Shown piece after piece: positions 537 through 44,279 of a stretch of 64,000 bases of DNA. Positions within the stretch are counted from its first letter, which is position 1, and the number at the start of each line of letters is the position of its first letter. Source of the DNA: a virus. The DNA is taken from the IMG/VR virus record IMGVR_UViG_3300032285_003860. The stretch is one strand, 5' to 3'. The notes under the pieces were generated by a model, which was not told the DNA's origin, did no database searches, and was given only the letters and a program-made list of their open reading frames with translations. The position numbers were made by a program, and so were the translations under genes.

Positions 537-899
537 ATGGCAAATGTATATGATATTTCAATAGATCAAGGCTCCAGTTTAAACTTAACCTTAACAGCGA
601 CAGACTCGGCTGGGGCTTATTTAAATCTCTCTGGATATGCTGCCAGAGGCAAGATTAAGTATGGTTATGGTTCTACCGGTTATTTGCTTGATATCAATCC
701 CACAGTTGATTCCAGTTACGTTAGCGGATTAATTAATATCTCTCTTAGTGCAACCAGTACTTCTCTGCTTCCCATCACAAAAGCAGTCTATGACATAGAA
801 GTTTATACTACGGGAACAATTGGAGCAATTGCCAGTGGCTATACTTTTAAAGTACTAAAGGGATATGCCAATGTTTCCCCAGAAGTAACAACAAGTTAA
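537..899 (+). CDS. virion beta-sandwich adaptor protein (BppU-N/LtfC-like fibre attachment)
   Basis: Pattern YDISIDQGSS...LNLSGY...GKIK...INISLSATST...YDIEV...VLKG...V.PEVT is typical of phage fibre-attachment beta-sandwich proteins; lies directly upstream of a fibre gene. Confidence 0.6.
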   Translation: MANVYDISIDQGSSLNLTLTATDSAGAYLNLSGYAARGKIKYGYGSTGYLLDINPTVDSSYVSGLINISLSATSTSLLPITKAVYDIEVYTTGTIGAIASGYTFKVLKGYANVSPEVTTS

Positions 900-903
900 A
901 CTT

Positions 904-2751
904 ATGGCTGATATTAACGTGACAGTTCAGGATAATCCACTTAACATTACTGTTAATACCAATCCTAATGTTTTTATCTCTGCTGCAACTGCTGGAGTGC
1001 AAGGACCAGCAGGTTCACAAGGGGCTTCTGGAGTTGCAGGACAATTAATTAGTTTAAATAGTTTAACGGGATATGTTAACCTTACTGGACTTGGCAACAT
1101 CTCTATAACAACTGGAAGTAGTTTAATTTATATTTCTGGCGCAACTGGAAACTTTTACCCAATCAACAATCCAAGTGGATATACTGCAACTGGATTTGTT
1201 ACGGGCATAAGCGGTTATTTACAAAATCAAATAACATCTTTAAGTGGGACACTAACTGGTAATTATGTTTTAAATTCTTCTACCGGCGTTTTTGCCACAA
1301 GTGCAAATTTGATTTCAACTGGCTCTAATCTTCAAAATCAGATTAATTCTTTGAGCGGAACCTTAACTGGCAATTACGTTTTAAAATCCGCCACAGGAGT
1401 ATTTGTAACAACTGGACAAACTGGAGTTTTTGCCACTTCAGCCAATCTTATATCAACGGGTTCAAATTTACAAGGTCAAATCTCAAGCCTTAGTGGAACT
1501 TTAACTGGTAATTATGTATTAACAAATACTGCAACAGGAATTAGCGGCACATTAGCCTCATCTATTGCATCAACTGGTTCAAACTTACAGGGGCAAATAA
1601 ATTCGTTGAGTGGTACATTGACAGGAAATTACGTATTAAATTCTAGTACTGGAATATTTGTTACAACAGGTCAGACAGGCAGCTTTATAACAGCTAATCA
1701 AACTGGCAACTCAAATACTTTGGGTGGACAATCAGGTTCATATTATTTAAATTATGCAAATATGACTGGTTCTATAAATGGGACTGGTTCATTTGTTACA
1801 GCAAGTCAAACTGGCCAATTTTATCCAAATTCAAATCCATCTGGATATATTACTGGATTTAATTCTGGCATTTACGTTCAAACTGGACAAACTGGAAACT
1901 TTATAACTACAAGTCAGACTGGACAATTTTATGCTAATTCAAATCCAAGTGGATATATTGGTTCGGCAGGATTATCTGGATATGTGACAACAGGTCAAAC
2001 AGGTAATTTTGTGACCACAAGTCAGACTGGGCAGTTTTACGCCAATTCAAATCCTTCTGGTTATATTACGGGGGTAAATCTTTCAAGCTATATTACTACT
2101 GGACAAACTGGAGTTTTTGCCACTAGTGCTAATTTAATCCTAACGGGTTCAAATCTTCAAGGACAAATATCTTCTTTAAGTGGAACTTTGACTGGGAATT
2201 ATGTTTTAATTTCAACCTCAACAGGAATTAGTGGAATTTTATCTTCTTCTATTGCTTCAACGGGGTCGAATTTACAAGGGCAAATTAATTCATTAAGTGG
2301 AACTTTGACGGGAAATTATGTTTTAAAATCTTCTACTGGCGTATTTGTTACTACAGGTCAAACTGGGGCTTTTTATCCAAGAAGTAATCCATCTGGTTTC
2401 ATCTCTGGTTATCAAAATGCCCAAGGATGGATTGGCGTCACTCAATCTCCAACATATTTTAATATAGACTCGCCCAATATTGGCAACTCTTATACGACTT
2501 TTGGAATTGGAGCTTCTCAAGATGTTTCTATATATCCAAATAGAAATTTATTATTAGGTCCTGTTGGTAAAGTGGGCATTCAAAATTCTAATCCAGTATA
2601 TGATTTAGATGTAATTGGTTCGGGTAATTTTAGTAGTAAACTTTCTGTTTCTGGCAGCATTTATACTAATAGTGGATTCCAGCTATATGATGCTGGTTTG
2701 GGCAGGATTGTCACAATCACTTGCTTTAATGGAATATTGAGCGTCAATTAG
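904..2751 (+). CDS. repeat-rich tail fibre protein
   Basis: Short collagen-like GxxGxxG run, multiple internal repeats and a C-terminal VGIQNSNPVYDLDVIG fibre motif; S/T/G-rich. Confidence 0.75.
   Translation: MADINVTVQDNPLNITVNTNPNVFISAATAGVQGPAGSQGASGVAGQLISLNSLTGYVNLTGLGNISITTGSSLIYISGATGNFYPINNPSGYTATGFVTGISGYLQNQITSLSGTLTGNYVLNSSTGVFATSANLISTGSNLQNQINSLSGTLTGNYVLKSATGVFVTTGQTGVFATSANLISTGSNLQGQISSLSGTLTGNYVLTNTATGISGTLASSIASTGSNLQGQINSLSGTLTGNYVLNSSTGIFVTTGQTGSFITANQTGNSNTLGGQSGSYYLNYANMTGSINGTGSFVTASQTGQFYPNSNPSGYITGFNSGIYVQTGQTGNFITTSQTGQFYANSNPSGYIGSAGLSGYVTTGQTGNFVTTSQTGQFYANSNPSGYITGVNLSSYITTGQTGVFATSANLILTGSNLQGQISSLSGTLTGNYVLISTSTGISGILSSSIASTGSNLQGQINSLSGTLTGNYVLKSSTGVFVTTGQTGAFYPRSNPSGFISGYQNAQGWIGVTQSPTYFNIDSPNIGNSYTTFGIGASQDVSIYPNRNLLLGPVGKVGIQNSNPVYDLDVIGSGNFSSKLSVSGSIYTNSGFQLYDAGLGRIVTITCFNGILSVN
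1144..2400 (+). repeat. intragenic protein repeats in the fibre gene
   Basis: About 6 copies of LQ[NG]QI[NST]SLSGTLTGNYVL and about 5 copies of TGxFYxxxNPSG; a 92-aa block is duplicated at 1405-1680 and 2092-2367. Confidence 0.9.
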
Positions 2752-2763
2752 TTATAATAAATT

Positions 2764-4739: not shown

Positions 4740-4742
4740 TTT

Positions 4743-5030
4743 ATGAAAAAATCAATTATCGCTATCGGTCTCGCTTTGGCGGGAGTTATTCACGCGCAGG
4801 ACGCAACTAATGTCCCGTCTGCAAGTTCTATTATTGTAACAACTAGAACTAACATTGTTACCATAGTTCAGCCCATTCAATTAACTACTGAACAAATGGC
4901 TGGAATCATCACTGCTGTTCAAGCAGGTGGCATCAGCGCAAATATACCTATCACTACTGACAATCTTCAGGGCGTTAATGTCCGTAAAAACCCTGCCGGT
5001 GGATATACTGTTTATATTCAGGTAAAATAA
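4743..5030 (+). CDS. small signal-peptide protein
   Basis: MKKSIIAIGLALAGVIHA/Q Sec-type N-terminus; 95 aa. Confidence 0.75.
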   Translation: MKKSIIAIGLALAGVIHAQDATNVPSASSIIVTTRTNIVTIVQPIQLTTEQMAGIITAVQAGGISANIPITTDNLQGVNVRKNPAGGYTVYIQVK

Positions 5031-5077
5031 TTAAACTACTTGAAATATCGCCATAGTAAGCCATTGGTCTTATAAAA

Positions 5078-5083: not shown

Positions 5084-5092
5084 TCTATATAT

Positions 5093-30891: not shown

Positions 30892-30919
30892 AGACTAAAC
30901 AAAATTTAAAAAATGTCAA
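30892..30919 (-). promoter_or_regulatory. sigma70-like promoter, probably leaderless
   Basis: Minus strand: TTGACA-16 nt-TAGTCT-6 nt-ATG. Confidence 0.6.
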
Positions 30920-32100
30920 GCGGTTAATTTGACGATTGTAAAAAAATCTAAATTATCCCAAAAAGAAGGAGAATCTATAACTTTTTGATATTCAAAATTA
31001 TTTTTGGCAACGATGTTATTTTCTACTGCCGCCAAGCTGTAATAAAGCTGACCATTTGCTGCCACTGTTTTAGCAGAACGGTAATAAAGAGAGTCTTTTT
31101 CTTTCTTTAATTCTTCTATTTTTTCTTTGCTTGGCTTTTCTATTGGATTTATCGTGCCAAAAGAATAATATTTTATTTTTAATTTTTCTATTTTGTCTTG
31201 TTCGAGGTCTGAAATTAGAATAAGCTTCAATCCTTCATCCCTGAGCTTCTTTAAAAAATCCAACTGATCTGTTTCGGTAATTTTAAAAACTAAATTTACA
31301 ATGTTCTGCTTAAATTGTTTTAATAAATTAATATTGACTGGCTTATCCATTATTAAAAAAGATTTTTTATATTGAGCTAATTGGTAACTAAGGCTTTCGT
31401 CGTCACAATTTACATCGGCACGAATTTCAACTATTGCTTCTGTGTTAAAAATGGCGTTTTTATGATTTGGTAGAGATTCTTGTATTGAAAAATGAGAATA
31501 TTTATTTCCAGTAAAGACTGTCTTAAATGGAATTTTAAAATCAATATTTAATTTCTCTAAAATTAAGTTTGCTATTTCTTCTGGATTGATTAAATTAATG
31601 GACTTTGGATTTTCTTGTTCGTTGAAGGATGGCTTTTTATTTTCGGTCCTTAAAAAACTTTCAAAAACAAATTGATTATTTTTTTCTCCAAAAAATGGTC
31701 CATTATTATTAGCGTAAGATACTGTGCTGATACTAACAATGGGCTTATTCTCTGCGCCAGCAATCTGGGATTCAATTCCATTGACGCCAAAAAATAATAA
31801 TGATTTTTCCATTAAATAAGCCATCTGATTTATGGATGCTTTTCCGCACAAATTAATAACTCCTCCATAATTAATGGAATCTGCGTTACCAAGTTGTAAA
31901 ATCTTTATATTATGTTCTTCTAATTTTGGCGACAGGCAATTAATCACATCTTGCCAATAAGAATAGTCTTTTGCTGGAATTTTATTTTCTGGGCGAAAAA
32001 GAATATATTTTTCTATGGGTAAAGGAAAATAAGCCTTATAAATAAAAGGTTTATCTATTTTTGCGCCACAGGCTAATGCGTAAGATTCTAAAGTATGCAT
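30916..32100 (-). CDS. GT9-like glycosyltransferase, C-terminal half plus extra domain
   Basis: H..E.Y linker, KDYSYWQDVI, LQLG, NLCGKASINQMAYLM..S.LFFGVNG...IA.A..KPIV match the GT9 C-terminal domain. Confidence 0.7.
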   Translation of the reverse strand: MHTLESYALACGAKIDKPFIYKAYFPLPIEKYILFRPENKIPAKDYSYWQDVINCLSPKLEEHNIKILQLGNADSINYGGVINLCGKASINQMAYLMEKSLLFFGVNGIESQIAGAENKPIVSISTVSYANNNGPFFGEKNNQFVFESFLRTENKKPSFNEQENPKSINLINPEEIANLILEKLNIDFKIPFKTVFTGNKYSHFSIQESLPNHKNAIFNTEAIVEIRADVNCDDESLSYQLAQYKKSFLIMDKPVNINLLKQFKQNIVNLVFKITETDQLDFLKKLRDEGLKLILISDLEQDKIEKLKIKYYSFGTINPIEKPSKEKIEELKKEKDSLYYRSAKTVAANGQLYYSLAAVENNIVAKNNFEYQKVIDSPSFWDNLDFFTIVKLTA

Positions 32101-32102
32101 AT

Positions 32103-34040
32103 TTAATTATATTTTAAAGAAAAATCAATTTTATCGTTTCCGTTGTGCATGAATGAAGGAAGCTTTTGGGTTGTAACATATGGCAAATAAGCAACATTAA
32201 AATAACCCTTATGAGAGTTATTGCCTTCTAAAAATACAATATTTTCCATCATTGGATTAAACTCTATCCATTTATCTACAAATTGGTTACCATCAATAAT
32301 CTCTTTGTACTCTCTTTTTGTAGAAACATATAGAGACCATTCAGGATACTTTTCTTTGATCGACCTAAAGAGTGAGGAAATAAGAAATATATCTTCTGCA
32401 TTTCCAGGCTGAACAACAATTACTCTGCCCTTGTCATTTGAATTTAAAAGGTCTTCAAATTTGACACCTTGAGCATTTTTTTCTTGACCATTTTTAAATG
32501 CGACTTGACGAAAATAATCTTCTATTTGTTGGCGATTTAAATCTTTATCTATTCTCGCCATCCAATGTTTAAATCCGTCATCATTTCTGTCTATTGACTT
32601 TTCGTCAAGGATATTGTGGTAAAGATGCAAAATCCATTCTGCATTATCTTTAATATCTGGGACTTTATAATTAGGATTTGGATTGTTTTTGATTGGTTCA
32701 AAAGCAGAATCATCATTAATCTTTGGAGCGGCGTCAATAAAATCTTCCAAAAACTTACCAATAACTTCTATGGAAAAATTATCAATTACCCACTGCCTAC
32801 CAGTTTTTCCAAGCTGCTTTCTGACTTCTGGTTTCATATTCAATACCTTTGTTAATTGCTTTGATATTGAATTAGGATAAGTACTTGCTTTAATGAACAT
32901 TGTATCTGGCTCTCTATACTCTGCCCAATCAAGTGGCAAAGACCCTGCTCCGTCTTCGCAAGAATCTTCTCCACAGCTATAATTGGTAACAAGAGTAACA
33001 AGTTCAGTTAATTTTGCTTCTTGAATTGGTATTTCCTGCCCACCAGAAGTGAAGGGATGACAATAAACATCCATTAAATTATAAATTTCATTTAATTGAA
33101 CTTCATCTACGCCAAATCCAGGGCCAGTAGTTGTTTGGCTTTTTTCAGCCCTACAAAATCTGCAATTTTCATCATTAGTAGAAAATGACTTTATTTCATA
33201 CTTACCGCAATTTCTGCAAACATAAGTGGTCAATACATCGGAAAGTCTTAATCCATGCTCTTCCAAAAGTTTTTGGATATTCCATCCCTCTACCCAAGAG
33301 GTATGAAGCAATAGCTTTGTTTTCAAAGATGGATTCGCTTGTTTAAACATTTTGAATCCTTGAATCAAATTTGGAACGCTTTTTCTGAGCTGATTTCTAA
33401 AAACAAATCCGACTATAAATGTTTCTGGGTCAATATTGTTTGCCTTTCTTAAGGCTAATCTCTGCGTCTCTGACAATCTATAAAAATTATTCGTATTCAA
33501 AGACCCTCTCACAGTTTTTGTGTGGGTGTGGCCCATTTTATGAAGAGCCTTTGTGGCAAAATCCGCCCAACTCCAATAATTCTTTGTCTTTTTTGCTGCG
33601 ACCACTGCTTTATCAAGGATTGGAAGAGAATCCAAAGTGGTCCATAGCGCACAAGTAATTTTATTAAACCAAGGCTTTTCTATTGAGAAATCAATTCCCC
33701 AAATATCTTGAATACCAATATAAACATCTGGCTTTTCTTGCCTTACAGCGTCATCAATGGCAAATGCCCCATATCCCGCCATTCTACTGATTCCATCCCA
33801 ATTTTTGGGGTCATTTTGTTGTCTAATAAGCTCTATCTTATTGGGCTGAATGGTAGCTAAAGTTTTCCAAGGGGTTCTATTTAATTCCTGAATGTTGCCT
33901 TCTACAGAACCAACTGCAAGATTGATCAATTCATATTTATCTGTATTAAAAAGATACTCTAGAATATTCCTTGCGTTTTTACCAAAACCAGTATTTGCCA
34001 ATGGGAAATCAGTATGAATGAGGACTTTCTTTTTTGCCAT
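32103..34040 (-). CDS. GT4 glycosyltransferase fused to DUF4214-like and GT9 N-terminal domains
   Basis: TGFG, RNQLRK, YNLMDVYCHPFTSGGQEIPIQEA (GT4/GT-B); CxxC..CxxC insert; LYHNIL...DDGFKHW; C-terminal EDIFLISSLFRSIKEKYP. Confidence 0.8.
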   Translation of the reverse strand: MAKKKVLIHTDFPLANTGFGKNARNILEYLFNTDKYELINLAVGSVEGNIQELNRTPWKTLATIQPNKIELIRQQNDPKNWDGISRMAGYGAFAIDDAVRQEKPDVYIGIQDIWGIDFSIEKPWFNKITCALWTTLDSLPILDKAVVAAKKTKNYWSWADFATKALHKMGHTHTKTVRGSLNTNNFYRLSETQRLALRKANNIDPETFIVGFVFRNQLRKSVPNLIQGFKMFKQANPSLKTKLLLHTSWVEGWNIQKLLEEHGLRLSDVLTTYVCRNCGKYEIKSFSTNDENCRFCRAEKSQTTTGPGFGVDEVQLNEIYNLMDVYCHPFTSGGQEIPIQEAKLTELVTLVTNYSCGEDSCEDGAGSLPLDWAEYREPDTMFIKASTYPNSISKQLTKVLNMKPEVRKQLGKTGRQWVIDNFSIEVIGKFLEDFIDAAPKINDDSAFEPIKNNPNPNYKVPDIKDNAEWILHLYHNILDEKSIDRNDDGFKHWMARIDKDLNRQQIEDYFRQVAFKNGQEKNAQGVKFEDLLNSNDKGRVIVVQPGNAEDIFLISSLFRSIKEKYPEWSLYVSTKREYKEIIDGNQFVDKWIEFNPMMENIVFLEGNNSHKGYFNVAYLPYVTTQKLPSFMHNGNDKIDFSLKYN

Positions 34041-34059: not shown

Positions 34060-34560
34060 TTAGAATGAACTTTTTTCTGGAAGAGTTTCTTGTTTTTGAA
34101 AAGACTTATCCAAAGCGTGAATCAAGAATTCTCGGATCAATCTTCCTTCTGCAAAAGTTAAACCAATATAAAAACTATTTTTTGCGCTAGAGTCTTCCTT
34201 GTCTGTTACTGCAATACTAAAGGAATAACCTCTTTGAGAAGGTTTTTCACCTTCTGCCACTTTGTTCATCCATTGACCAAATTTAATAGCTTTAAGATTT
34301 TTATCGCTATCATGTACAGTTGAGAATTCCCTGCCTCTATCTAATGCATCTAAAATCGCAGCAGCCTCAACTTGACCAAGTTTTACATTAACCTGCTTAA
34401 ATGGGTCGTTTCTACTAGCAGAAAATGTTCCAATTTGGCTTTTTGGGTCCCAAGTTGATTGTTTTATTAATGTTGCAAAAATAGCATTGTCTTTTGAAGA
34501 TTGGGAAAAAGAGCAGGCAAATCCAGTATTGTTTTTATTCGGATGATATATGGCCAACAT
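34060..34560 (-). CDS. putative ssDNA-binding protein (PC4/Whirly-like)
   Basis: 166 aa with two beta-sheet plus helix units (..VKL...EAAAIL; ..IGLTFAEGRLI); near the SSAP gene. Confidence 0.4.
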   Translation of the reverse strand: MLAIYHPNKNNTGFACSFSQSSKDNAIFATLIKQSTWDPKSQIGTFSASRNDPFKQVNVKLGQVEAAAILDALDRGREFSTVHDSDKNLKAIKFGQWMNKVAEGEKPSQRGYSFSIAVTDKEDSSAKNSFYIGLTFAEGRLIREFLIHALDKSFQKQETLPEKSSF

Positions 34561-34607: not shown

Positions 34608-37600
34608 ATGAATATTACGACAAATAATTCAATTAAAAATAATATTTTTGATGGCTCTTATCAAATTACTGTTTTGCCAATTCCTACTGGTTCGGCGTAT
34701 TCTTTTTGGTCTGGTAAAATACTCAATCCCGCTGGGATAACTGGGAGTCTTGTATATTTATCTGATGAACAAAGAGACTCTGGTTATCTTTTTTCTGGAT
34801 ACTCCTATACTGGAGACTCTTTTCCTTTTCCAAAGGGCGTTTTTTTAAGTGGAGCCACTTCAGAAACAACCTCCGTTAGTGGTTATTTATATTATTCTTT
34901 AAATACTCCATTATTAGGTGTTTGTCATGGAGTAGGAAATACGGGAGAAAATATGTGGTATAATGGTTATAATTTTTATAACGCATTTCATCCAGAGGGT
35001 ACTTTTTCTCCACCTTTTGGTCAAAATATTTCGGTTTATAAATCTAATTCAAATGGTACTGCTGCTCTTGCCGAAAATGGAAGCTGTTCGAGTTTGACAA
35101 GTCAAGAATATAATGATTTTTTTGGCATTGTTTCCAAAGCAGATGTAAACGCGGAGGCTTCTGCGGATGGTATTGCTAATGGTGGGACTTCATTTATTAA
35201 TTCTCCTGCTTATGCCTGTCCCGAAGAGGTTATTACGGTCTATTATTGGCACGAATCCCAATACAATATTATTGGTGGCACAGTTGGGGCAATAACGGCA
35301 AATACTTTTTTTAACACAAATCCGATTCCTACTTCTTTAGATAATTTTGATAGAAAAACTGATTTAAGATATTCTGTTTCTAGTGAACAGGGTGGAACTT
35401 TGCCAAATGGACAAAAAGAAACTATACAACATGTTTTATATGATGGTGGCGGAAAGCCAATTCCCGCTTATCAAACTGTTGGCGCAAATATTTTAAATAC
35501 TGTTTTGTGTCCATCTATTACCGCTGAAAGCTCTCTTTCCGTTGGAACACAAACAGAAAGTCAATTATTGCTTGCCGCAGATGTATTAAGTAATCCATCT
35601 AAAGGGTTTTTTGATTATTTTAATTGGTGGAATCTTTGGCACTTTCTTTACAAAGAAAATACTGATGGGTTTCCATTTCAAAATGATTATGGACTTTTTC
35701 AAGGCGAGGGGATAGTTATTCCAGCCGGTAGAAGCTCAAATTATGGTAGTCAACTTTTTGAGGCTCAAATTTCTAATGAAAATAATTATTGGGACAGAAG
35801 GCAGTGCCCAATGGGTATAAATTTTCTTCCGCATACATTTGGCGGAGCAATTTATGCTTGTCCATCTTATACTTTTGAAATTCCATATTACGCTGCAACT
35901 AAAAAATTTGGATTTTATGGAGCTAGATTTCTCGATGGATGCATTAGCTTAAGTTTAAATAATACTCTCAATGGACAGCCAAATTCCTCGGATTTACCAC
36001 CTAATTTTACTTATACTACCCCACAAGAAGAAGAGCCAAGCCCAGATGTTGGTACACTTTCAAGTAATAGTCGCTATGATAATCTTTTAGATATTGCCAA
36101 TAAAGAAGAATTACATTCTGACTTTTACGCCATGAATAAAGGATTATTCCTTTGGTCAAATTCTGGATTAATTAATTCGTCTCCTGATTTTATTAATTTA
36201 AGTTTAGTGCCAGGATTCTCTCAATTATTTACCAATTTATTGTCTCAATATTCTGCTGTTTTTCCTGGCGGAAAATCTGATATATTAAAAAATGATTATT
36301 TATATATTAGTGGAGAAGAAAGTCAGTTTTATGATACTGGTATTTATTCTTTGATATTGTCGCAGAATTCTAATTACAAAAATTTTAAAAATAATTTATA
36401 CGATCTTTTATCAGGATCTTTACAGATTAGCTATTGGAATAATATAGAAAAAGATTATTCATACGCTATTCTTTCTCAAAAAAATCAAGTTGATAATAGT
36501 TTCTATAGTCAATTGCAAGCTGGTAAACAATCAAGGTTTTTCACTAGGTATTTAGAAAATTATGTAAAAGGTAATTCCGTTGATTTGTATCCAACGAATA
36601 AGATTTATTTTAGTTATGATTCTGCTAGTAGTTATGTTGAAAGCTCTGGGTGGGCAAAATCCCCGAATTCTTTTGGAACAGCCAGTCATTTTGATCCAAA
36701 AATAACAAGAAGATATTTTCTTGGAGCATATAGTAATGGTCAAGATGTTACTGGAGTGGCTAATTTTTCTCAAAATTTCGCGGGGATTAATTTGAATAAT
36801 TACTCCTTTTATCCTGGATATTTTAATGGAAATATAGGATTAGAATTGCCTCCTCCTTCTTTTTTGCCCGTCATTTCTGGAGTATATGATTCAACAAATA
36901 ATCCTAACTTTAATAACGAATCAATTCAAGGAAATAGTTTTCCAGCAGTAACAAACGGTTGGAATTTAGTAGGATATAATGGAATAGGAAGATTAAATTT
37001 AAACTTCTCTTGTTTTACTCCTATATTTGTTCAAAACCCTCTTCCCATAACCCATTGTAAAATTGGTCAAGCTCCTACATTTAGGGCTTACGCAGTAGAT
37101 TATCATACTATTCCAGAAGATAAGATGAATAATCGCTATCCTGAAATTAGATATTGGATGGATAAGTTAAAAATAAGTAATGGCAATAAATCAGTCACAG
37201 CAAAAACGACAAACGCTTATCCATTGTCTTATAAATGGTATAGAATTAAAAAAAGTGATTGCACTGGATCAGTTTCTGACCCAACGATTCAAAATGGTGA
37301 CTTTAAGAAATTTTTATTAAATCCTGATTTTTCTAAAATAGTGCCCTCTAGTCAATCTGGTGAATGGTGCTGTTTGGAAGGTGATGACCAATATTGCACA
37401 TTAATCCATCCATCTGGATGCATCCCTCCATTGCCTTCTCCAATATCAAGTTTAAAATACAAGTATGCCAATTACCCAATGCAGCAAACTTTAAAACAAA
37501 ATAATTATAATATGACTTTTGTTAAGGGGGCGCAAAAAAATGAAGATGAAAACTATTATTACTTCTGTATGGCAAGGGGAAGATTTGGTATAAGAATAAG

Positions 37601-39458
37601 CGAGCCTTCTCAATTATTTATTGAAGATTGGATAGATTTTGATGTGAGTATGCGTAATGGAGGAAATAATGCATTCACAGCGAATAAAGCATTAACAGTC
37701 TCTTTCCAAGCTGGAGACGTGACCGTAAATTGTAACGCTTCTTCTGTTCCTTCTTACGCTGGATTCGTTCAAGATACTGATGCAATTCCAGAAGACGTAG
37801 TAGAAGAACAAATTCCTCCGCCAAATCGTGGATATGGAGATGTTTTTTCTTATAAATTTGTTGGACCATGGGGCTATAGAGGGGCAGTGCAAAGTTATAC
37901 TCCTGGAACATTAAATGATACAAGAGGACTTAGAGAAACCTGGGGTAGACTTTTACATTATGGTTCTCTTTTCCATTATCACAAACAGCTTTCTCAAACA
38001 GAAGGCGATGCCTTATATGGAAGAAATCACTTGCCAGTTTGTAACGCAGGGCATCAAATGTCCGACAAACAACAAGGCATAAAAGTTGTTGTAAATGGCA
38101 TCACTCATTGGGCCAATATGCAAAATCCTATTGCAGACACAAAGGGTAAATATGGAGTACTTTGGAGCAAGTTGGGTAATGCCGCAGAGCTTTATAATCC
38201 TGCCGTTTCTATTACAAATGGCGCTATTGACACTAGTCCATCGCCAGGATTAGGACAATGGCAATACGGAAACAACTTTGGAGCAATTCATAATTTTGGC
38301 TGGTTTAGTAATTTGATTGAGCCTGGCGGTAACACTAATGTCGAAAACGGTGATTTAACTACTACTCCTGGAACATTATCTACGACGGATTTTAAAAAGC
38401 TTAAAACAAATGTTCTTCCCGCTGGAACTCTTGCGGGGAAAAATTGTGGCTGGCACAAGGGCGGATTAGGAAGGTCTACTTCTTATTGGATAGAGGGTTT
38501 TAATGCTTTTTATGTTTTCTGCGACCCTTTAAAAAAGAAAAATGTTACAAATTATAGCTATATGAGTCCAGGATTGAGGCAGTCTAATAGCTCAATTCAA
38601 TATTTTTGGTTGGGTAAACCAAATAATTCATACCTCGAAAGATATCCAATGTTTGGTCCTTATGCTTACCAATGGAGGGTAAGAAGGCAAAATAGAGATA
38701 GAAATGGTAATGGTGTTTCAGAAGGCTTTTATTCTTATGGATGGGGATCAAACTATAGTTTAATGTATGATAATCCCGCCATTTATGGCCTTTTTATTAA
38801 ATATAAACAAAAAGATCAATCTGCTCTTGCACAGATTAATAGCTATAGAATTTCTGCATTTGGCTCTCCTGATGCAGCTTTAAGTGTTTCGCACACTAGA
38901 TTTGGATTTACAAATGGAGATGGTGGAGCGCGACCCTATCCTTCTCCTGGAATTTGGATAGGTAATATTTCCGACCCAACTCCAAATACAACCAGAGATT
39001 ATGTAAACAAAGGATATGCCAATGCTTTAAGCCCACAATTTTCTTTGTATGGATGTTCTGATGCTGATATTAATGCTGGAAACTGTTTTGATCCATGTAT
39101 TAGTATGAGATATCAAAATGGGTTCTTGCCAGGTGGCAAAAAACAAGATCTTTTTACAGCGAATAATTCATATCGTATCATTGCAAATAATCCAGTAGTA
39201 AATAATGTTACTGGCTCTTCAACAGTCGTTTTATCAGAAAACACTTATTTTCGTGGTCCTTTTGGTGCGCCACATATAAAATACTTGTCATCTTTGGGAA
39301 CAAAAGTAAATGGATTTTCCCCTTGTTTTGATGGCGGTGCAGATCATTGTAATTATATTACCCCCACTATTAACATTGGAGATTCAACTTACTATGAATC
39401 AAAGGGTCCAGTTATAATAAATACTGCAATAAGTGTATCGCAGGTCGTGAATTTTTAA
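34608..39458 (+). CDS. giant putative virion protein with Ig-like domain
   Basis: 1616 aa; PIFVQNP...GQAPTF...YKWY...YFC is Ig-like; more than 20 Cys; [ST]G-rich N-terminus; GTGTAT upstream at 34562. Confidence 0.6.
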   Translation: MNITTNNSIKNNIFDGSYQITVLPIPTGSAYSFWSGKILNPAGITGSLVYLSDEQRDSGYLFSGYSYTGDSFPFPKGVFLSGATSETTSVSGYLYYSLNTPLLGVCHGVGNTGENMWYNGYNFYNAFHPEGTFSPPFGQNISVYKSNSNGTAALAENGSCSSLTSQEYNDFFGIVSKADVNAEASADGIANGGTSFINSPAYACPEEVITVYYWHESQYNIIGGTVGAITANTFFNTNPIPTSLDNFDRKTDLRYSVSSEQGGTLPNGQKETIQHVLYDGGGKPIPAYQTVGANILNTVLCPSITAESSLSVGTQTESQLLLAADVLSNPSKGFFDYFNWWNLWHFLYKENTDGFPFQNDYGLFQGEGIVIPAGRSSNYGSQLFEAQISNENNYWDRRQCPMGINFLPHTFGGAIYACPSYTFEIPYYAATKKFGFYGARFLDGCISLSLNNTLNGQPNSSDLPPNFTYTTPQEEEPSPDVGTLSSNSRYDNLLDIANKEELHSDFYAMNKGLFLWSNSGLINSSPDFINLSLVPGFSQLFTNLLSQYSAVFPGGKSDILKNDYLYISGEESQFYDTGIYSLILSQNSNYKNFKNNLYDLLSGSLQISYWNNIEKDYSYAILSQKNQVDNSFYSQLQAGKQSRFFTRYLENYVKGNSVDLYPTNKIYFSYDSASSYVESSGWAKSPNSFGTASHFDPKITRRYFLGAYSNGQDVTGVANFSQNFAGINLNNYSFYPGYFNGNIGLELPPPSFLPVISGVYDSTNNPNFNNESIQGNSFPAVTNGWNLVGYNGIGRLNLNFSCFTPIFVQNPLPITHCKIGQAPTFRAYAVDYHTIPEDKMNNRYPEIRYWMDKLKISNGNKSVTAKTTNAYPLSYKWYRIKKSDCTGSVSDPTIQNGDFKKFLLNPDFSKIVPSSQSGEWCCLEGDDQYCTLIHPSGCIPPLPSPISSLKYKYANYPMQQTLKQNNYNMTFVKGAQKNEDENYYYFCMARGRFGIRISEPSQLFIEDWIDFDVSMRNGGNNAFTANKALTVSFQAGDVTVNCNASSVPSYAGFVQDTDAIPEDVVEEQIPPPNRGYGDVFSYKFVGPWGYRGAVQSYTPGTLNDTRGLRETWGRLLHYGSLFHYHKQLSQTEGDALYGRNHLPVCNAGHQMSDKQQGIKVVVNGITHWANMQNPIADTKGKYGVLWSKLGNAAELYNPAVSITNGAIDTSPSPGLGQWQYGNNFGAIHNFGWFSNLIEPGGNTNVENGDLTTTPGTLSTTDFKKLKTNVLPAGTLAGKNCGWHKGGLGRSTSYWIEGFNAFYVFCDPLKKKNVTNYSYMSPGLRQSNSSIQYFWLGKPNNSYLERYPMFGPYAYQWRVRRQNRDRNGNGVSEGFYSYGWGSNYSLMYDNPAIYGLFIKYKQKDQSALAQINSYRISAFGSPDAALSVSHTRFGFTNGDGGARPYPSPGIWIGNISDPTPNTTRDYVNKGYANALSPQFSLYGCSDADINAGNCFDPCISMRYQNGFLPGGKKQDLFTANNSYRIIANNPVVNNVTGSSTVVLSENTYFRGPFGAPHIKYLSSLGTKVNGFSPCFDGGADHCNYITPTINIGDSTYYESKGPVIINTAISVSQVVNF

Positions 39459-39479
39459 AGATATTAGTATAATAATAAA

Positions 39480-42400
39480 ATGAGTATCAATAGTCAATTA
39501 TTTGGTTTGGCGTCAGCAGTTGCCTATATAAGACAAGGCGGCGGCACCACAGCTAAAAATATTATACAGGGTATGAGCAATGCCTTTGGCGGCACCAATG
39601 ATGATGGGACATATGCATATAATTTGTTTCAGGCTGATACTGGCATACTTTATACAAATGGGTTTAATTTATCATATATAAGTTATGCTAACCTTGAAAA
39701 CACTGTGTCTCCTCTCGTTGGTAACATTCCCGTCCTAAATGTTGGTATTTCTGCTTTAACTTATGGGTATGGGAACTATTACTCTATTGGCGAGTCAAAT
39801 ATAGTAAATTATATAAATAAATTTAATACAGCAATGGGATATCCCAATATTTCTATTACTGAATCAGACTTTGATATCATTTTTTCTAGCTTATCTTTAG
39901 AAGGCATAAATAATGATGTAATAAATTCTCCTGATTCAGCAAACCCGATTGGTAAAAATGTCAATTATAATTGGTATGATTCTTCTGTTTTGTTTGGCTT
40001 AGATAAGTCTACTTCCCACGCCACATTAATTAAAGATATAGAAAATCAATATTATTACCTTACAGGAAAATTAATCTATGATCCTATTCCTGGAGATTTA
40101 GTAAAATGCATTTCTTCTGGAACACTGATAAATACTTCTAGTGGAGTAATTTTTACTAATTATATTTTAAATCAGCCTTGTTATGATGCGGATTCTTATA
40201 TCGGTCCTGTTTCTGGAATTAATTTTTTTAGAACATTTAATGATGGTCCAGGAACATCTGGATATTTTGATGATACCGTTACCCAAGAATATGTGAATTT
40301 TGATAAAGCTATTTTAGCAAAAGAAGATTATTCTTCAAACAATAGAGCTTTATATTCTTATCAAACTGATGAAAATGGCAATTATTTATTTTTGAAATCT
40401 GGAGTAAATATTGATGTTCCTGGAGTGTTTAATCCGTCAGAAGAATATGGAGCAGGACATACAAATAAAATATCTGCTGGACAGTATTGTTCTTTTACTG
40501 GATATTATGCAGAAGGCGTTCCATTAATGAGAATGCATCAAGGCGATAATCAATTAAAATGGAATGTCCAAAAGAGTTATGTCGGAGATTATCCTAATGG
40601 CATTTGTGTTATCACTAGCTCTTTGGAAAATTGGACTGGTTGGAAATTGGTTAATTTTGAACTTGATGAAAGTCAATCTGAATATTTTCAAAATGTCTTG
40701 ACAAATCCTGACGCCAATTTAAAAAGATTTTTAAAAAGATGTTTAAGTTTAACTAATTCAAAAGATTCTCATGGTAATCCAGTGACTCCTTATAGTTTGG
40801 TATATGAATATAATACTGGGGTATTGGCTTGCTATGGGCCTTATAATGCTCCGACTGATGAACTTGGTCATCTTATCCCAACTTATGTTGGTCCTCCTCA
40901 ATTAAATGGCTCTGCCGACTTGCCTGGACTTGCTTTTTATCAAACTTTTGATAATTCAAATTTCCCAGACTCAGGCGGAGAATATATTACAATTAATATT
41001 CGTCCAGTAATATCTAGTTCTTCTGCGGGATCAATAAATGGAGATTCTACAAGGACTTTTTCTTCCAGCGTCTCTAATTCTAATCTTTTTTCTTTGTCTG
41101 GGTCGTCCCATGCAGGTTTAAATGCCGCAAAATTAAGTTTTAATAAAAAAATTGATTCTTCGGGTCTTTCTGGTTACGATGATATATTCAAAAAATGTTT
41201 ATCTATTGGTGATAATTTTCAAAACTCTATTTCTGGAGCTTTATATCCACAATCGAATGCTGGATTTAATTATTCTGGTGGAATATATTTTTCTGGAAAC
41301 GAAATTGTGTATCCTCAAGACTTATTGCATTTGTCCAAACTTATTGGTTCAGAATATTCTGGCGTAATGTTTTTAACTGGGTTTCAAAATATAAATGATA
41401 ATTCTGTGTCATTGATAAACAGATATGATTCACAATTTTATACTGGTAATGTTTCTAATGGAGCAAAGACCGCTGGAGAAAATGTAGGATACTATTATTT
41501 TCAAGACACAATATTGGGTGCATCAAACGCTGGTTGGGAAAGTTTTTCTCCAATTCCTCCAGATGTTCAAAATGACGCTGATAATCTACCTTATCTTTCT
41601 GGTATATATTCTGGAATTTCTTTAACTAGTAAAGTAGAAAATTATTTACCAAGATATTATTCTGGACCATATAGAAGCTATTCTATAAAATTTTTATATC
41701 CAAATGCTTCTGGTGCAACAATCACATATGATTCTAAACTAAATGGATTTCCGTATAAAATTACGTATTCCATGACAATTAAAGAAGAATCTGTTAGAGA
41801 AGTATATGGCTTGTCTGGACTCTATAGCAGTCAGCAAAATTTATATCCTATTAGAGCCAATGCTTTTGGTGGAACATCTGCATTAAATGAATTAATGCCG
41901 ACCATGTTTTTAAGTCCATATACATATAATTTTAATGTAAATAAATCTATTTATCCAGATTCAGGGGGCTTTAATCATTCAGCTTCTTATGGTGGATTTG
42001 TTAATGGATTTTATGTTCCTAATTTTAGAAACAATATAAATGACCCATATAATGCGCCGAATTATTGTACTCAATCTTTTTTAAATAGTAACGCGTACCA
42101 AGATTCTTGTTCTTTTATAAATGGCATTAAAACTACTGGAAAAGTTAATTATAAAGTTATTTATACTGGCGGAGGACTTACAAAGAAAATTGGTTTTATT
42201 GAGCCAGCCCTAGATTCTACTTTGTTTTGGAATTATTCTTCAAATAAAATAACGGGAGAAGCTTTTTATGTTCCTCCAGTTTTTGATTTGTCTACATATA
42301 CAATTAATCCTTCTCAAAATTTATTAGACATGACTGTGAATAGATTGTTTGGTAAAAAAACTGATCCAACTTTTTCAAACAATGGTCTTGTAAGAACAGG

Positions 42401-44279
42401 TATTCTGGTCGATGGATTTGATCCAATTTTCTATGAGTATGTTGGTGGAAGAATTGGTTCTGGGGCAAATAATGAAGGTGGCTATAATAGCAAAAATATT
42501 ATTGGCGATCAATGGTTGGATTTTTACGCAAAAAATTGGGGAGTTTATAATGCCCCAAATTGCCCTAATTATGGTACTCACGAGGAGCGTCTTGCTAAGA
42601 ATGATAATTATTTGATACTTTCATCATTTACAAATAGCGGTCTAAATATTTATGCCAGAGGATTAAACTATTATCCCTATTTTAGCAATTGGACTTATAC
42701 TAAAATGAATGGGTTGGGCAATATAGGCGTTACAACCAGCCAAATTAATTTAAATGGTGAATCTTATTATAATTTTGATTTGCAAAATATATTCCCCACC
42801 AAAACTGTTCCATTAAGTGGTCAATTTTATTCTTCTGGCGGTTTTAATCTTGGACCTTTCCCTCAAGATGTTGAGCTTTGTGTTTCTGGAGCAGATTCTA
42901 TTATTCCAAGCGGTTATCTTTTTGTGGATGGAGAGCAAATGACTTTTAATTATCTCGGTAACTGTCCAATAAATAATATGGAAAATTTTGTTCCTAATTC
43001 TGGAATTATTACAAGTCAAGCTGGAAGAGGGTCTCTATTAACTACTTTTAAATTAATTCCTTCTGGTTCTTTTGTAAACTTAAATATAAAAAGTTTTACA
43101 TCTATTGGTTCAGGTTTAATTGGAATTACTGGAAAATCAACGGTGACCATTCGTCCAAGAACTTTGCTTGGCGCAGTCAATACTGATAATTATGATGATT
43201 ATGGGTATCCATTCATTTCTGGGGATTATCTCGCTAATATGAATGCTTCTAATTATATAAATAATGGCTCAGAAAGCATTTTCTCTGCAAATCTTAGTCA
43301 ATTTACAGATTTGATTGGTCAAAATATATCAAAGCAGACCCCAGTGCGTTCGGAGATAATTTTCCCCGTTCCTGGTCCTGATTTTATTCCTTATCTTAGT
43401 GGTTTGGGTCTAGTTACTTCGGACGCCAATGGAAATTATGTATTTACAACTACAAGAGGGCCCACTTATGATTATTGGGTAAATAAAAATCCTTATGCCT
43501 TATTTACTGGAATTAGAGAATCAACAAGGCTTTCAATTCAAATTGATAATATTTCTTTAGATTATTCTCCTGTACCATATCAAAGCTATAAAAATATTAT
43601 TGTGTCTGGGGCATGTACAATAAGCGGAGAATTTTCTTATACTGGACAAGCAGAAAGCGCAATACTTTCCCAAGGTATAGTTTTGTCGGGATGGACTGGA
43701 AGCGGATATTCTGCTGCTGTATTAAGAGATATTTCTGCGCCAATTTATGTTTCTGATATATTAAGTCGTCTTCCTGGAAATTTGCTTCCTTCTGGACAAG
43801 GGATAAACTATCTTTTAGAAGCCCCCTCTTTAATGAAAAAGAGAAAGCGCTTTTTTCAAATTACTGGTGGAGATACTTATATTGATGCTCCGCCTCCAGG
43901 GGTAACCAATTACAATAAATTCGCTTGGCCAGCTTTAAGTGATTTAGCTACTTTGAATCCAAACATTGTTTACGAACAGCTTCCTCCAGAAGATGGGTTT
44001 ATTTTTCCAACAGATAATTTAATATTTAGCGCATCTCAAGGGCAAGCGATTTTAACTGGAGCAACATCTGGAACAAAATTCAATCCAGTAGAAAACGTCA
44101 CCTATCAAGCAATTTTAAATTACGCTTTTCTAGATAGTACTGCGACTAATTCACTATATAATTCTGGAAAATGTATTTTTCCATTTACAGAAGGCTCTAA
44201 TATAATAAATAGCGGCAATCTAACTGGAGTACTCGTACAAGAGCGCACTCCTTTGGCAGTCTATATAAATTTCGTATAA
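39480..44279 (+). CDS. giant putative virion protein
   Basis: 1599 aa; N/S/Y/G-rich with abundant SG/TG like the tail proteins. Confidence 0.6.
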   Translation: MSINSQLFGLASAVAYIRQGGGTTAKNIIQGMSNAFGGTNDDGTYAYNLFQADTGILYTNGFNLSYISYANLENTVSPLVGNIPVLNVGISALTYGYGNYYSIGESNIVNYINKFNTAMGYPNISITESDFDIIFSSLSLEGINNDVINSPDSANPIGKNVNYNWYDSSVLFGLDKSTSHATLIKDIENQYYYLTGKLIYDPIPGDLVKCISSGTLINTSSGVIFTNYILNQPCYDADSYIGPVSGINFFRTFNDGPGTSGYFDDTVTQEYVNFDKAILAKEDYSSNNRALYSYQTDENGNYLFLKSGVNIDVPGVFNPSEEYGAGHTNKISAGQYCSFTGYYAEGVPLMRMHQGDNQLKWNVQKSYVGDYPNGICVITSSLENWTGWKLVNFELDESQSEYFQNVLTNPDANLKRFLKRCLSLTNSKDSHGNPVTPYSLVYEYNTGVLACYGPYNAPTDELGHLIPTYVGPPQLNGSADLPGLAFYQTFDNSNFPDSGGEYITINIRPVISSSSAGSINGDSTRTFSSSVSNSNLFSLSGSSHAGLNAAKLSFNKKIDSSGLSGYDDIFKKCLSIGDNFQNSISGALYPQSNAGFNYSGGIYFSGNEIVYPQDLLHLSKLIGSEYSGVMFLTGFQNINDNSVSLINRYDSQFYTGNVSNGAKTAGENVGYYYFQDTILGASNAGWESFSPIPPDVQNDADNLPYLSGIYSGISLTSKVENYLPRYYSGPYRSYSIKFLYPNASGATITYDSKLNGFPYKITYSMTIKEESVREVYGLSGLYSSQQNLYPIRANAFGGTSALNELMPTMFLSPYTYNFNVNKSIYPDSGGFNHSASYGGFVNGFYVPNFRNNINDPYNAPNYCTQSFLNSNAYQDSCSFINGIKTTGKVNYKVIYTGGGLTKKIGFIEPALDSTLFWNYSSNKITGEAFYVPPVFDLSTYTINPSQNLLDMTVNRLFGKKTDPTFSNNGLVRTGILVDGFDPIFYEYVGGRIGSGANNEGGYNSKNIIGDQWLDFYAKNWGVYNAPNCPNYGTHEERLAKNDNYLILSSFTNSGLNIYARGLNYYPYFSNWTYTKMNGLGNIGVTTSQINLNGESYYNFDLQNIFPTKTVPLSGQFYSSGGFNLGPFPQDVELCVSGADSIIPSGYLFVDGEQMTFNYLGNCPINNMENFVPNSGIITSQAGRGSLLTTFKLIPSGSFVNLNIKSFTSIGSGLIGITGKSTVTIRPRTLLGAVNTDNYDDYGYPFISGDYLANMNASNYINNGSESIFSANLSQFTDLIGQNISKQTPVRSEIIFPVPGPDFIPYLSGLGLVTSDANGNYVFTTTRGPTYDYWVNKNPYALFTGIRESTRLSIQIDNISLDYSPVPYQSYKNIIVSGACTISGEFSYTGQAESAILSQGIVLSGWTGSGYSAAVLRDISAPIYVSDILSRLPGNLLPSGQGINYLLEAPSLMKKRKRFFQITGGDTYIDAPPPGVTNYNKFAWPALSDLATLNPNIVYEQLPPEDGFIFPTDNLIFSASQGQAILTGATSGTKFNPVENVTYQAILNYAFLDSTATNSLYNSGKCIFPFTEGSNIINSGNLTGVLVQERTPLAVYINFV

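Follow-up and report, generated by a model that had tools for sequence, protein, structure and literature searches.

A selected Ser/Thr-Gly dipeptide excess in tail-tip and fibre proteins of uncultured freshwater phages, more likely structural than a sugar-attachment signal

In the window studied here, a 64,000-nt stretch of viral DNA (IMG/VR record IMGVR_UViG_3300032285_003860), the dipeptides Ser-Gly and Thr-Gly (together [ST]G) occur two to three times more often than expected in the proteins encoded from positions 904, 22022, 27308 and 39480. Judged from the sequences, this excess is a genuine, selected habit of a defined protein subset, limited to four of the 49 window proteins. The subset comprises beta-rich, lysine-poor host-recognition proteins: one of side-fibre type, two of the tail tip and one giant fibre. 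The signature is found across a large clade of uncultured freshwater phages with genomes of roughly 160 kb. An earlier note had read [ST]G as an O-glycosylation sequon. A structural role is more likely than a sugar-attachment signal, and the favoured explanation, held at somewhat less than even confidence, is that [ST]G constitutes a structural Ser/Thr-Gly unit.

Size and direction of the excess

Window proteins were translated with table 11 and each was tested against 500 shuffles of its own sequence. Proteins are named by the first position of their genes. The four biased proteins and one unbiased neighbour of 39480, similar to it in size and composition and used as internal negative control, are the following.

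904..2751, + strand, 615-aa repeat fibre protein: [ST]G 66, G[ST] 22, expected 26.0, z 10.1 (the strongest excess)
22022..23818, + strand, 598-aa tail-tip or baseplate protein: [ST]G 42, G[ST] 16, expected 13.6, z 8.9
27308..29185, + strand, 625-aa tail-tip protein: [ST]G 38, G[ST] 13, expected 15.5, z 7.1 (excess concentrated in residues 300-600, with 30 sites against 12 expected)
39480..44279, + strand, 1599-aa giant fibre-type protein: [ST]G 56, G[ST] 19, expected 27.3, z 6.3 (bias along nearly the whole length, with 3-6 sites in 100 aa where 1.3-2 are expected)
34608..39458, + strand, 1616-aa neighbour of 39480: [ST]G 20, G[ST] 23, expected 24.7, z -1.2 (unbiased)

The reverse dipeptide G[ST] is not enriched in the four biased proteins. 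A hand count made earlier for 22022 (about 42 [ST]G versus 16 G[ST], with about 60% of glycines after Ser or Thr) agrees with the computed values, 63% of its glycines being so preceded. Five proteins had been singled out by position as saturated with the dipeptides; this holds for four of them and fails for 34608, in which only the first 100 residues are enriched (8 sites against 2.9). The absence of bias from replication proteins and glycan enzymes, also claimed beforehand, is borne out (z < 3 in all). In the same shuffle test, no bias appears in the tape measure protein 10880 (z 1.3), in protein 23829 (z -0.4) or in the candidate tail tube 7703; weak signals are present in 6782 (z 3.6) and in 18491 and 20327 (z 2.0-2.3).

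Protein 904 has a short collagen-like start, with a Gly-X-Y run near residue 31, followed by internal repeats of about 36-39 aa and a 229-aa duplication; SLSGTLTGNYVL and TGQTGxF are each found six times. Its 66 sites fall into only 44 distinct six-residue contexts, and its z overstates the independent evidence because the sites sit in internal repeats. No relative of 904 is found in Pfam, PHROG or PDB, no Pfam family matches 39480, and searches of the PDB with 904, 27308, 29191 and, as sequence or profile, the GT4-like glycosyltransferase (GT) described below give no useful sequence relative. The repeats of 904, holding several [ST]G each, are what would be expected if there were no selection on the dipeptide and the excess came from repeat amplification and a Ser/Thr/Gly-rich composition. 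Such an origin is very improbable. The excess survives composition-keeping shuffles (z 6-10), a check proposed at the outset, with no parallel rise of the reverse dipeptide. Proteins 22022, 27308 and 39480 lack periodicity, and 34608, with its similar composition, is unbiased. Moreover, both residues of the sites are conserved above background, and no Ser or Thr codon family is missing from them. An origin without selection is largely refuted in this way for three of the four biased proteins.

Several simpler properties were tried and rejected. Periodic repeat structure fails for 22022, 27308 and 39480, in which site spacing is indistinguishable from random placement. A DNA-level motif fails on codon usage, TCN, AGY and ACN codons all being used at the sites in proportions near background. 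A general property of phage fibres is rejected on one control, T4 gp34 and gp37 (ratios 1.0-1.1), and a property of the LamG fold on the unbiased LamG protein at 3888-4739 (Pfam E 7e-15). Similarity among the four biased proteins is not detectable, so that one shared fold cannot be invoked.

The residues around the glycines give the excess its character. S-G and T-G are equally enriched (2.4-fold each), and every other X-G pair is depleted. N-G and D-G lie below expectation in the biased proteins (0.61-0.83), as they would if Ser and Thr had replaced Asn and Asp before Gly for chemical durability, so that virions persisting long in the environment would escape deamidation and isoaspartate formation. 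This is the least credible of the explanations considered: the depletion of N-G and D-G is among the mildest, and pairs with K, P, G, L or I in front of Gly are lower still; other virion proteins of the phage show no such replacement; and the substitutions seen at conserved sites (L, N, Y and K) give it no support. The flanks are hydrophobic, with L, I, V or Y at position -1 and I, L, V or Y following the glycine, and Asp at position -1 is not enriched.

Conservation and placement of the sites

The bias extends through the relatives of the phage. In 33 of 35 related viral loci the homologue of 22022 shows a bias of 2-fold or more, and in L008 one of 1.9-fold; in L035, where tblastn finds no 22022 homologue, a biased 584-aa ORF occupies its place. 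The ORF at the position of 27308 is biased in about 31 of the 35. In the complete relative G001, 4 of 130 ORFs are biased, three of them at the positions of 904, 22022 and 27308, and its large fibres of 756, 2004 and 1320 aa carry no bias. No cultured relative was found in 50,697 phage records, either by DNA search or with the GT4-like and 904 proteins as tblastn queries.

Protein 22022, whose start is preceded by GTGTAAT 24 nt upstream, is the best described. Its AlphaFold model (pLDDT 78.5) shows a LamG/ConA-like jelly roll spanning about residues 1-220, then a two-stranded hairpin of 40 residues (235-321), and a beta domain at the C-terminus. The jelly roll matches LamG/ConA-like proteins in Foldseek searches of PDB and BFVD (E 1e-6 to 2e-8), and PF13385 is present on two homologues. 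In the family of 45 homologues, all 37 aligned members are biased (2.3-4.0-fold), down to 25% identity. The Ser or Thr of [ST]G is conserved at 0.71 versus 0.39 for other Ser and Thr (0.61 versus 0.41 in the 27308 family), and many sites are strictly Ser or strictly Thr. Both residues are retained in 862 cases, Ser/Thr alone in 12, Gly alone in 31 and neither in 94. As the aligned homologues indicate, the two residues are lost together and the dipeptide behaves as a unit. In lineage-specific added blocks of the homologues the excess is 1.65-fold, compared with about 3-fold in the core, and several added domains have none. The ordered part of the model contains 40 sites. Strands hold 15 of these, 10 being strand-interior; 10 are no more than two residues from where a strand begins or ends, and tight turns hold 3. 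The sites are predicted in every secondary-structure class, in much the same way as residues overall, with no favoured position.

These features are best accommodated by the structural Ser/Thr-Gly unit. Glycine would give the backbone freedom at the beginnings, ends, bulges and turns of strands, and the hydroxyl residue before it would cap the backbone and keep the spot polar but uncharged; this capping or kink role is inferred. About 30 such units per protein would be fixed in position, and new loops and strands of the fast-evolving parts would be built with the same unit, which would produce an excess outside the conserved sites as well. The glycosyltransferases of the phage would not be aimed at the [ST]G sites. 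Confinement of the bias to a few proteins in the window and in G001 argues for this explanation, as do its spread through the 22022 family and the related loci, the better conservation of Ser and Thr within [ST]G, the joint presence or loss of the dipeptide, the hydrophobic flanks, the predicted sites in strands, near strand ends and in tight turns, and the weaker excess in added blocks. Other observations fit less well. The fold is not decisive, since the LamG protein, T4 gp34 and gp37 and the giant 34608 are unbiased, and the four biased proteins share no detectable similarity. With sites in all secondary-structure classes and random spacing, no single role fits. Finally, [ST]G is in excess (1.4-2.0-fold) even outside conserved sites, where the reverse dipeptide stands at 0.65-0.9; this looks like pressure on the dipeptide itself.

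Known backbone motifs offer a partial parallel. In ST-turns, ST-motifs and Gly beta-bulges, a Ser or Thr hydroxyl is bonded to the backbone beside a left-handed Gly, at strand ends and bulges; the hydrophobic flanks and coupled conservation of the phage sites fit such motifs, but the sites favour no single secondary-structure position in the model. To our knowledge, motifs of this type never make up 60% of a protein's glycines. They normally accept Asp and Asn equally, and before a turn glycine Asp and Asn are normally as good as Ser and Thr (Asx and ST turns). Since N-G and D-G are not enriched (0.74-0.83), the preference is for the hydroxyl as such, which counts against a purely structural unit.

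Hydroxyl specificity, together with the unit behaviour and the continuing gain of sites, would also suit another hydroxyl-directed modification or recognition, such as phosphorylation, acylation, ester cross-links or a dedicated fibre chaperone that selects Ser or Thr before Gly. The gene at 537-899, upstream of 904, matches phrog_1084 and phrog_3304 ('L-shaped tail fiber protein assembly') and points in the same direction. This explanation, reached by exclusion, is improbable: no kinase, acyltransferase or similar gene is seen in the window, and we know of no hydroxyl-modifying system of the phosphorylation, acylation or cross-link type that uses an [ST]G motif.

Glycosyltransferase genes and the sequon reading

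Two groups of genes bear on glycosylation. The first is a conserved block centred on a GT4-like gene.

30148..30885, - strand, 245-aa conserved protein of no known family, always accompanying the GT pair
30916..32100, - strand, 394-aa GT9-like protein, residues 25-178 corresponding to the GT9 C-lobe (donor-binding half)
32103..34040, - strand, 645-aa GT4-like core enzyme (model pLDDT 85.8)
34060..34560, - strand, 166-aa Whirly-like protein, candidate single-strand DNA-binding protein

The 645-aa protein consists of a GT4 domain of GT-B fold (residues 1-440) with a Cys4 ribbon insert (invariant C275, C278, C293 and C296), a helical DUF4214-like linker and a C-terminal Rossmann piece modelled as beta-alpha-beta-alpha-beta. 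Its two-Rossmann GT-B fold lies nearest to GT4 enzymes and places the protein among them: Foldseek matches are the chlorovirus GT 3oy2 (E 9e-18, TM 0.75 on target), MshA, PimB' and BshA. It scores 23.3 bits against PF00534, below the cut-off of 26.4, and PF00534 is precomputed on many of its more than 3552 homologues, the best 120 of which are 57-100% identical. Residues 539-593 of the protein, in the Rossmann piece, align with WaaF 2-56 in hhalign (probability 34%, E 4e-4), and the match to TIGR02195 positions 1-55 is weak (E 0.11). The gene of the 394-aa protein has its start codon 2 nt past the GT4 gene stop. This protein aligns with E. coli WaaF 174-337 (hhalign, probability 92%, E 5e-7) and its profile matches 1psw and 3tov; it scores 17 bits against PF01075, below cut-off, and PF01075 is present in 62-68% of members of matching Atlas clusters. 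It has the GT9 donor-binding C-lobe with the G-x-D-S/x-x-x-x-H-x-A segment, whose motif Ser is not conserved, and no invariant Cys in the alignment that was compared with WaaF. The 'GT4-GT9 pair' named earlier is a clade-wide core unit in which a GT4 and a candidate GT9 N-lobe are fused and the GT9 C-lobe is encoded by the next gene.

The neighbours of this unit are equally constant. The 245-aa protein is 46-62% identical across relatives, has no Pfam, NCBIfam or PHROG family and gives weak Atlas leads to single-strand annealing proteins (scores < 0.9). The Whirly-like protein (PF08536, E 1e-4, 22.6 bits versus a cut-off of 23) is encoded by a gene that always adjoins the GT4 gene, and adjoins DnaE in sister phages. 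The GT pair lies on the strand opposite the structural genes and, together with the Whirly-like and 245-aa genes, forms a fixed block. The motif GTGTAAY precedes the structural genes and is absent from the GT block, whose genes do not belong to the virion structural module. Placement of GT genes between structural blocks, as described earlier, is correct for this sub-clade, in which about 9-10 kb separate the GT block from DnaE (in the window, this space is two giant fibre genes), and does not apply to G001-G003, in which the block lies directly beside DnaE. On the structural reading of [ST]G, this conserved GT4/split-GT9 unit is one of the replication-side genes' company.

The second group is a glycan island.

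53983..63615, - strand, glycan island: Gmd, epimerase/reductase, GT10, GT2, GT8, a 370-aa unknown protein, epimerase, DegT aminotransferase, GT2, methyltransferase and radical-SAM protein
55856, GT10
56683 and 61175, GT2
57374, GT8
55053-55877 and 59051-59869, two Pfam Epimerase-family proteins besides Gmd

The count of about eight glycosyltransferases shrinks to six (GT10, two GT2, GT8, and the GT4-like and GT9-like proteins at 32103 and 30916), and the donor-synthesis enzymes announced with them are present (Gmd, the two Epimerase-family proteins, DegT aminotransferase, methyltransferase and radical-SAM protein). In G001, counterparts reaching E 1e-4 or better exist only for Gmd and the epimerase-type genes. 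On the structural reading of [ST]G, the island more likely serves to make or alter a host envelope glycan. Two complete relatives and one that is 84% complete contain no recognisable ThyA-type hydroxymethylase, which weakens DNA glycosylation via hydroxymethyl-pyrimidines as the target of the GTs.

The reading of [ST]G as an O-glycosylation sequon has to be weighed against this background. In its fullest form, the two-chain GT4/split-GT9 would act in the cytoplasm, priming the Ser or Thr that precedes Gly in tail-tip and fibre proteins, and the variable island would extend the chain into a strain-specific glycan coat. Equal enrichment of S-G and T-G without N-G and D-G is consistent with a sequon, and so are the presence of the bias in dissimilar proteins of different fold types, the gain of sites outside conserved positions, the six GT-like genes with their GDP-sugar enzymes, and the fact that the GT4 domain finds its best structural match in a chlorovirus GT. 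The combination of a highly conserved GT pair and a variable island fits 'conserved primer, variable extension', the GT9 family includes protein-Ser heptosyltransferases (PMC4358343), and virion glycosylation exists in mycobacteriophages (as cited in PMC12619734). Against the sequon stand the replication-side operon of the GT pair, beside DnaE in sister phages and without GTGTAAY; the hydrophobic flanks, with a quarter of the sites inside predicted strands; the need for sugar on 35% of Ser and Thr in a folded jelly-roll protein; the added domains of the biased proteins, mostly without the motif; and the lack of bias in the large fibres of this phage (34608) and of G001. The island is almost wholly different in G001, with the [ST]G signature unchanged, which argues against the sequon and, like the synteny of the GT pair with DnaE and the Whirly-like gene, for the structural unit. 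The GT4-like gene is present in every relative where it could be sought, no relative without the GT4-GT9 pair was found in the clade, and L008 is the only locus without the GT trio at the usual place; as the bias and the GT pair are both fixed in the clade, their co-occurrence is uninformative. Literature searches found no paper that describes [ST]G in phage tail proteins as a sequon or as a biased dipeptide. On balance, a sequon is unlikely, though ahead of the remaining alternatives to the structural unit, and the specific scheme of a clade-wide two-chain primer acting at Ser/Thr-Gly with strain-specific chains built by a hypervariable island is, if anything, a shade less likely.

Known glycosylation systems and significance

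Eukaryotic proteoglycan xylosylation uses Ser-Gly as O-glycosylation acceptor, needs acidic flanks and accepts Ser only. The phage sites differ in their hydrophobic flanks and in having Thr as frequently as Ser, and no GT14-type enzyme was found. They also depart from the Bacteroidota sequon D-[ST]-[AILVMT], position -1 being rich in L, I, Y and V without Asp and position +1 being Gly.

Heptosyltransferases of the TibC/AAH type (GT9) come closer. In the cytoplasm they hyperglycosylate many serines of the beta-rich TibA and AIDA-I, they modify beta-helix turns, which are short loops between short strands, and these autotransporter enzymes carry a four-Cys finger inserted in a GT-B enzyme (PMC4358343). 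The phage resembles them in its GT9-like C-lobe, its Cys4 insert and its many Ser/Thr sites with strand-type flanks. It differs in that its GT9 is split over two genes with the candidate N-lobe fused to a GT4, instead of a single-chain GT9-like GT-B core; its Cys4 insert lies in the GT4 domain and not, as the iron finger does, in the GT9 C-lobe; its enzymes have no N-terminal beta-barrel; and no heptose pathway is seen in the window. Mycobacteriophages decorate their own virion proteins by means of phage-encoded GTs, the capsid and tail-tube subunits carrying glycans at their C-termini (Freeman et al. 2023, cited in PMC12619734, a 'moraphage' paper that concerns another lineage). By comparison, the candidate sites here are dispersed in tail-tip and fibre proteins, and the candidate tail tube 7703 is unbiased.

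If the sequon were true, these phages would cover the organs by which they recognise hosts with glycans of their own making, placed at dozens of defined sites, with bearing on host range, defence evasion and the way virome proteomics is searched; if the two-chain GT reading held, no earlier case of a virion glycan coat directed by a sequon would be known among tailed phages of aquatic bacteria. If the role is structural, [ST]G would provide a countable marker for a class of receptor-binding proteins in a very abundant uncultured phage clade, and it poses a protein-design puzzle, namely why Ser or Thr, and never Asn or Asp, is placed before glycine.

Serine/threonine–glycine signature in four virion proteins

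The window is a portion of an uncultured phage genome of ~160 kb, with a GC content of ~34%; its GT4-like protein is recorded on a 162,952-base contig. DNA and protein searches found no cultured phage resembling it. Its main gene blocks are:

233-30147 and 34608-44279 (+): virion genes, among them the tape measure (2530 aa) and a number of very large tail proteins
44281 onward (-): replication module (DnaE-type polymerase core, separate exonuclease and PHP proteins, PD-(D/E)XK nuclease, primase, DnaB, RecA)
44281-46842 (-): DnaE-type core, beginning at the NTPase domain
46839-47534 (-): separate RNase T-like exonuclease
47488-48249 (-): separate PHP protein
53983-63615 (-): island of glycan genes

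The DnaE-type polymerase is in pieces across 44281-48249 (-), with PHP, exonuclease and core separately encoded; in one relative (G006), the core is matched by two distinct open frames (residues 3-501 and 497-853). The tape measure homologue in the complete 158-kb relative G001 (loci L039-L040, 11595-25973) reaches 4792 aa, nearly twice the length in the window.

Ser or Thr before Gly ([ST]G) and the reverse dipeptide (G[ST]) were tallied in all 49 ORFs of the window, each tested against 500 shuffled versions of its own sequence. Four proteins, named by gene start, are far outliers.

[ST]G content of the biased proteins
904 (615-aa repeat fibre): 66 [ST]G, 22 G[ST], 26.0 expected, z 10.1
22022 (598-aa tail-tip/baseplate protein): 42 [ST]G, 16 G[ST], 13.6 expected, z 8.9
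27308 (625-aa tail-tip protein): 38 [ST]G, 13 G[ST], 15.5 expected, z 7.1
39480 (1599-aa giant fibre-type protein): 56 [ST]G, 19 G[ST], 27.3 expected, z 6.3

The signature is real. A hand count for 22022 in the earlier note (~42 against ~16) is exact, and the bias survives correction for composition, all four proteins standing at z 6.3-10.1 against their own shuffles. Pure descent or composition is a very improbable source of the excess; no mutual similarity is detectable among the four proteins. The earlier note also counted the giant neighbour 34608 among the saturated proteins, which does not hold: it is unbiased (20 [ST]G, 23 G[ST], 24.7 expected). Its first 100 residues alone (34608-34907, +) are [ST]G-rich, with 8 observed versus 2.9 expected, and may be a shared attachment domain. 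Replication and glycan enzymes lack the bias, as first noticed (all z <3), and the shuffle test finds none in the tape measure, 23829 and the candidate tail tube 7703.

In the three non-repetitive biased proteins, S-G and T-G each occur at 2.4 times expectation, and Gly is under-represented after every other residue (for Asn 0.80, for Asp 0.61). Avoidance of deamidation is the least probable of the explanations considered for the excess. Protein 904 consists of internal repeats bearing the dipeptide (SLSGTLTGNYVL six times, TGQTGxF six times), which reduces its 66 sites to 44 distinct contexts. The sites use every Ser and Thr codon family in proportions near background, so that a nucleotide-level motif is rejected as the cause. 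Intervals between sites in 22022, 27308 and 39480 match random placement, so a hidden period and clustering of the mucin type are both excluded. A general property of phage fibres is discarded likewise on a single control, the ratios in T4 long-fibre gp34 and gp37 being just 1.0-1.1, as is a property of the LamG fold, since the Pfam-confirmed LamG protein at 3888-4739 of the window is unbiased. A literature search found no paper describing the signature.

Conservation and structural context of the sites

Homologues of 22022 number 45, carried by contigs as long as 206 kb, and the [ST]G ratio is 2.3-4.0 in all 37 that were aligned, down to 25% identity. Ser/Thr of [ST]G are conserved at 0.71 in this family versus 0.39 for the remaining Ser/Thr (0.61 versus 0.41 in the 27308 family, with 27 conserved sites). 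Many sites admit Ser alone or Thr alone, and ten of the pairs scarcely vary. Over 27 conserved column pairs of the 22022 family, both residues are present 862 times, both absent 94 times and split just 43 times. Outside conserved sites, computed with four columns' slack for alignment error, [ST]G still stands at 1.8-2.0 times expectation (sites common to at least 50% removed) or 1.4 times (at least 30% removed), with G[ST] at 0.65-0.9. This indicates a fixed core and a continuing gain of [ST]G. Lineage-specific added blocks in 22022 homologues reach only 1.65 times, several added domains having none.

The gene order tape measure, 18491, 20327, 22022, 23829 and 27308-type gene is common to 35 related viral loci. 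The bias of the 22022 homologue is at least 2-fold in 33 of these loci and 1.9-fold in L008; L035 lacks a tblastn match to 22022 and carries a biased 584-aa ORF in that place. The ORF following 23829 is biased in about 31 of the 35. Of the 130 ORFs in G001, just four have a z of 4 or more; three of these occupy the places of 904, 22022 and 27308, and the other giant fibres of this relative (756, 2004 and 1320 aa) show no bias.

The AlphaFold model of 22022 (pLDDT 78.5) has three parts: an N-terminal jelly roll matching LamG/ConA-like proteins, including a cyanopodophage tailspike, a two-stranded 40-residue hairpin (residues 235-321) dense in [ST]G sites, and a C-terminal beta domain. Among 40 ordered sites in the model, 10 are strand-interior, 5 at strand ends, 10 within two residues of a strand, 3 in tight turns, 11 in other loops and 1 in a helix. 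This distribution approximates that of residues generally. The signature also occupies the jelly-roll domain. Flanks are hydrophobic, with L/I/V/Y at -1 and I/L/V/Y following Gly.

Glycosyltransferase pair and glycan island

Six glycosyltransferase-like genes are supported, fewer than the about eight first proposed; the donor-synthesis enzymes are present as claimed (Gmd, epimerases), together with a DegT aminotransferase, a methyltransferase and a radical-SAM protein. The features that bear on their genomic place are:

32103-34040 (-): 645-aa GT4-like protein
30916-32100 (-): 394-aa GT9-like protein
34060-34560 (-): 166-aa Whirly-like protein (PF08536, 22.6 bits, just below cut-off)
215, 522, 5078, 6725, 8675, 10843 and 21992 (+): GTGTAAY sites just upstream of seven structural genes, including 22022
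52045 (-): GTGTAAY site just upstream of small gene 51741-52043

The fold of the 645-aa protein is that of a true GT-B/GT4 enzyme: its model (pLDDT 85.8) is matched best in Foldseek by chlorovirus NY-2A glycosyltransferase 3oy2 (E 9e-18), followed by MshA, PimB' and BshA. The protein carries a CxxC-x14-CxxC insert, which is invariant, and a helical linker resembling DUF4214. A C-terminal piece, residues 539-593, can be aligned with E. coli WaaF 2-56 (hhalign E 4e-4, probability 34%) and also matches TIGR02195 positions 1-55. The 394-aa gene starts 2 nt past the GT4 stop, and residues 25-178 of its product match the complete donor-binding lobe of WaaF (residues 174-337; probability 92%, E 5e-7). 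Because matches to the WaaF N-lobe start and C-lobe lie in adjacent genes, a GT9 appears to be divided over a translationally coupled gene pair (30916-34040, -), the C-terminal piece of the GT4 protein being a weak candidate for its N-lobe. This arrangement, with the putative GT9 N-lobe start fused after GT4-Cys4 ribbon-DUF4214 and the C-lobe opening the next gene, is conserved clade-wide, and the pair is more unusual than the earlier note supposed. The GT4 family has >3552 members, the best 120 all 57-100% identical, a degree of conservation well above that of the tail proteins. The gene that closes the tail block on the plus strand (29191-30147, +) has a weak BLASTP match to the island GT2 at 56683 (E 0.02-0.03, 23% over 129 aa); Pfam and PDB-profile searches gave no support for this likeness.

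The pair sits in a constant block of 245-aa gene, GT9 C-lobe gene, GT4 gene and Whirly-like gene. This block directly adjoins DnaE on the same strand in relatives G001-G003; in the sub-clade of the window, ~9-10 kb separates them, here two giant plus-strand genes. The Whirly-like gene is always beside the GT4 gene and, in sister phages, also beside DnaE; judged from sequence, its product may be a phage single-strand DNA-binding protein from an unusual family. Neither the GT block nor the island is preceded by a GTGTAAY site; the total in the window is at chance (9 observed versus 10.2 expected), its placement alone being striking. The location of the pair removes the main genomic argument for [ST]G as an O-glycosylation sequon, which is unlikely, and the glycosylation interpretation is unproven. 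As the GT4 gene occurs in every relative that could be searched, co-occurrence of bias and pair has no power as a test. DNA as the target of the pair is made less likely by the absence of a ThyA-type hydroxymethylase in G001-G003.

The island keeps its position after RecA in the distant G001 (L042-L043, 65.5-89 kb) and is almost wholly different there: only Gmd and epimerase-type genes are common to both, nothing in G001 corresponding to the GT10, GT2 or GT8 genes. Its gene content marks it as a hypervariable glycan locus. Despite the changed island, the [ST]G signature is identical in G001.

Several features speak against a structural role alone: hydroxyl residues are strictly preferred to Asn/Asp, no single structural position is favoured, the signature occurs in unrelated proteins yet is missing from others of like fold, and sites are still being gained. 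Selection by another hydroxyl-directed process is more doubtful than the sequon. The favoured reading, held tentatively, is that [ST]G is a structural Ser/Thr-Gly unit of these virion proteins: its positions are conserved, its two residues are lost together, its flanks are hydrophobic, added domains show less of the bias, and it does not depend on what the island contains.
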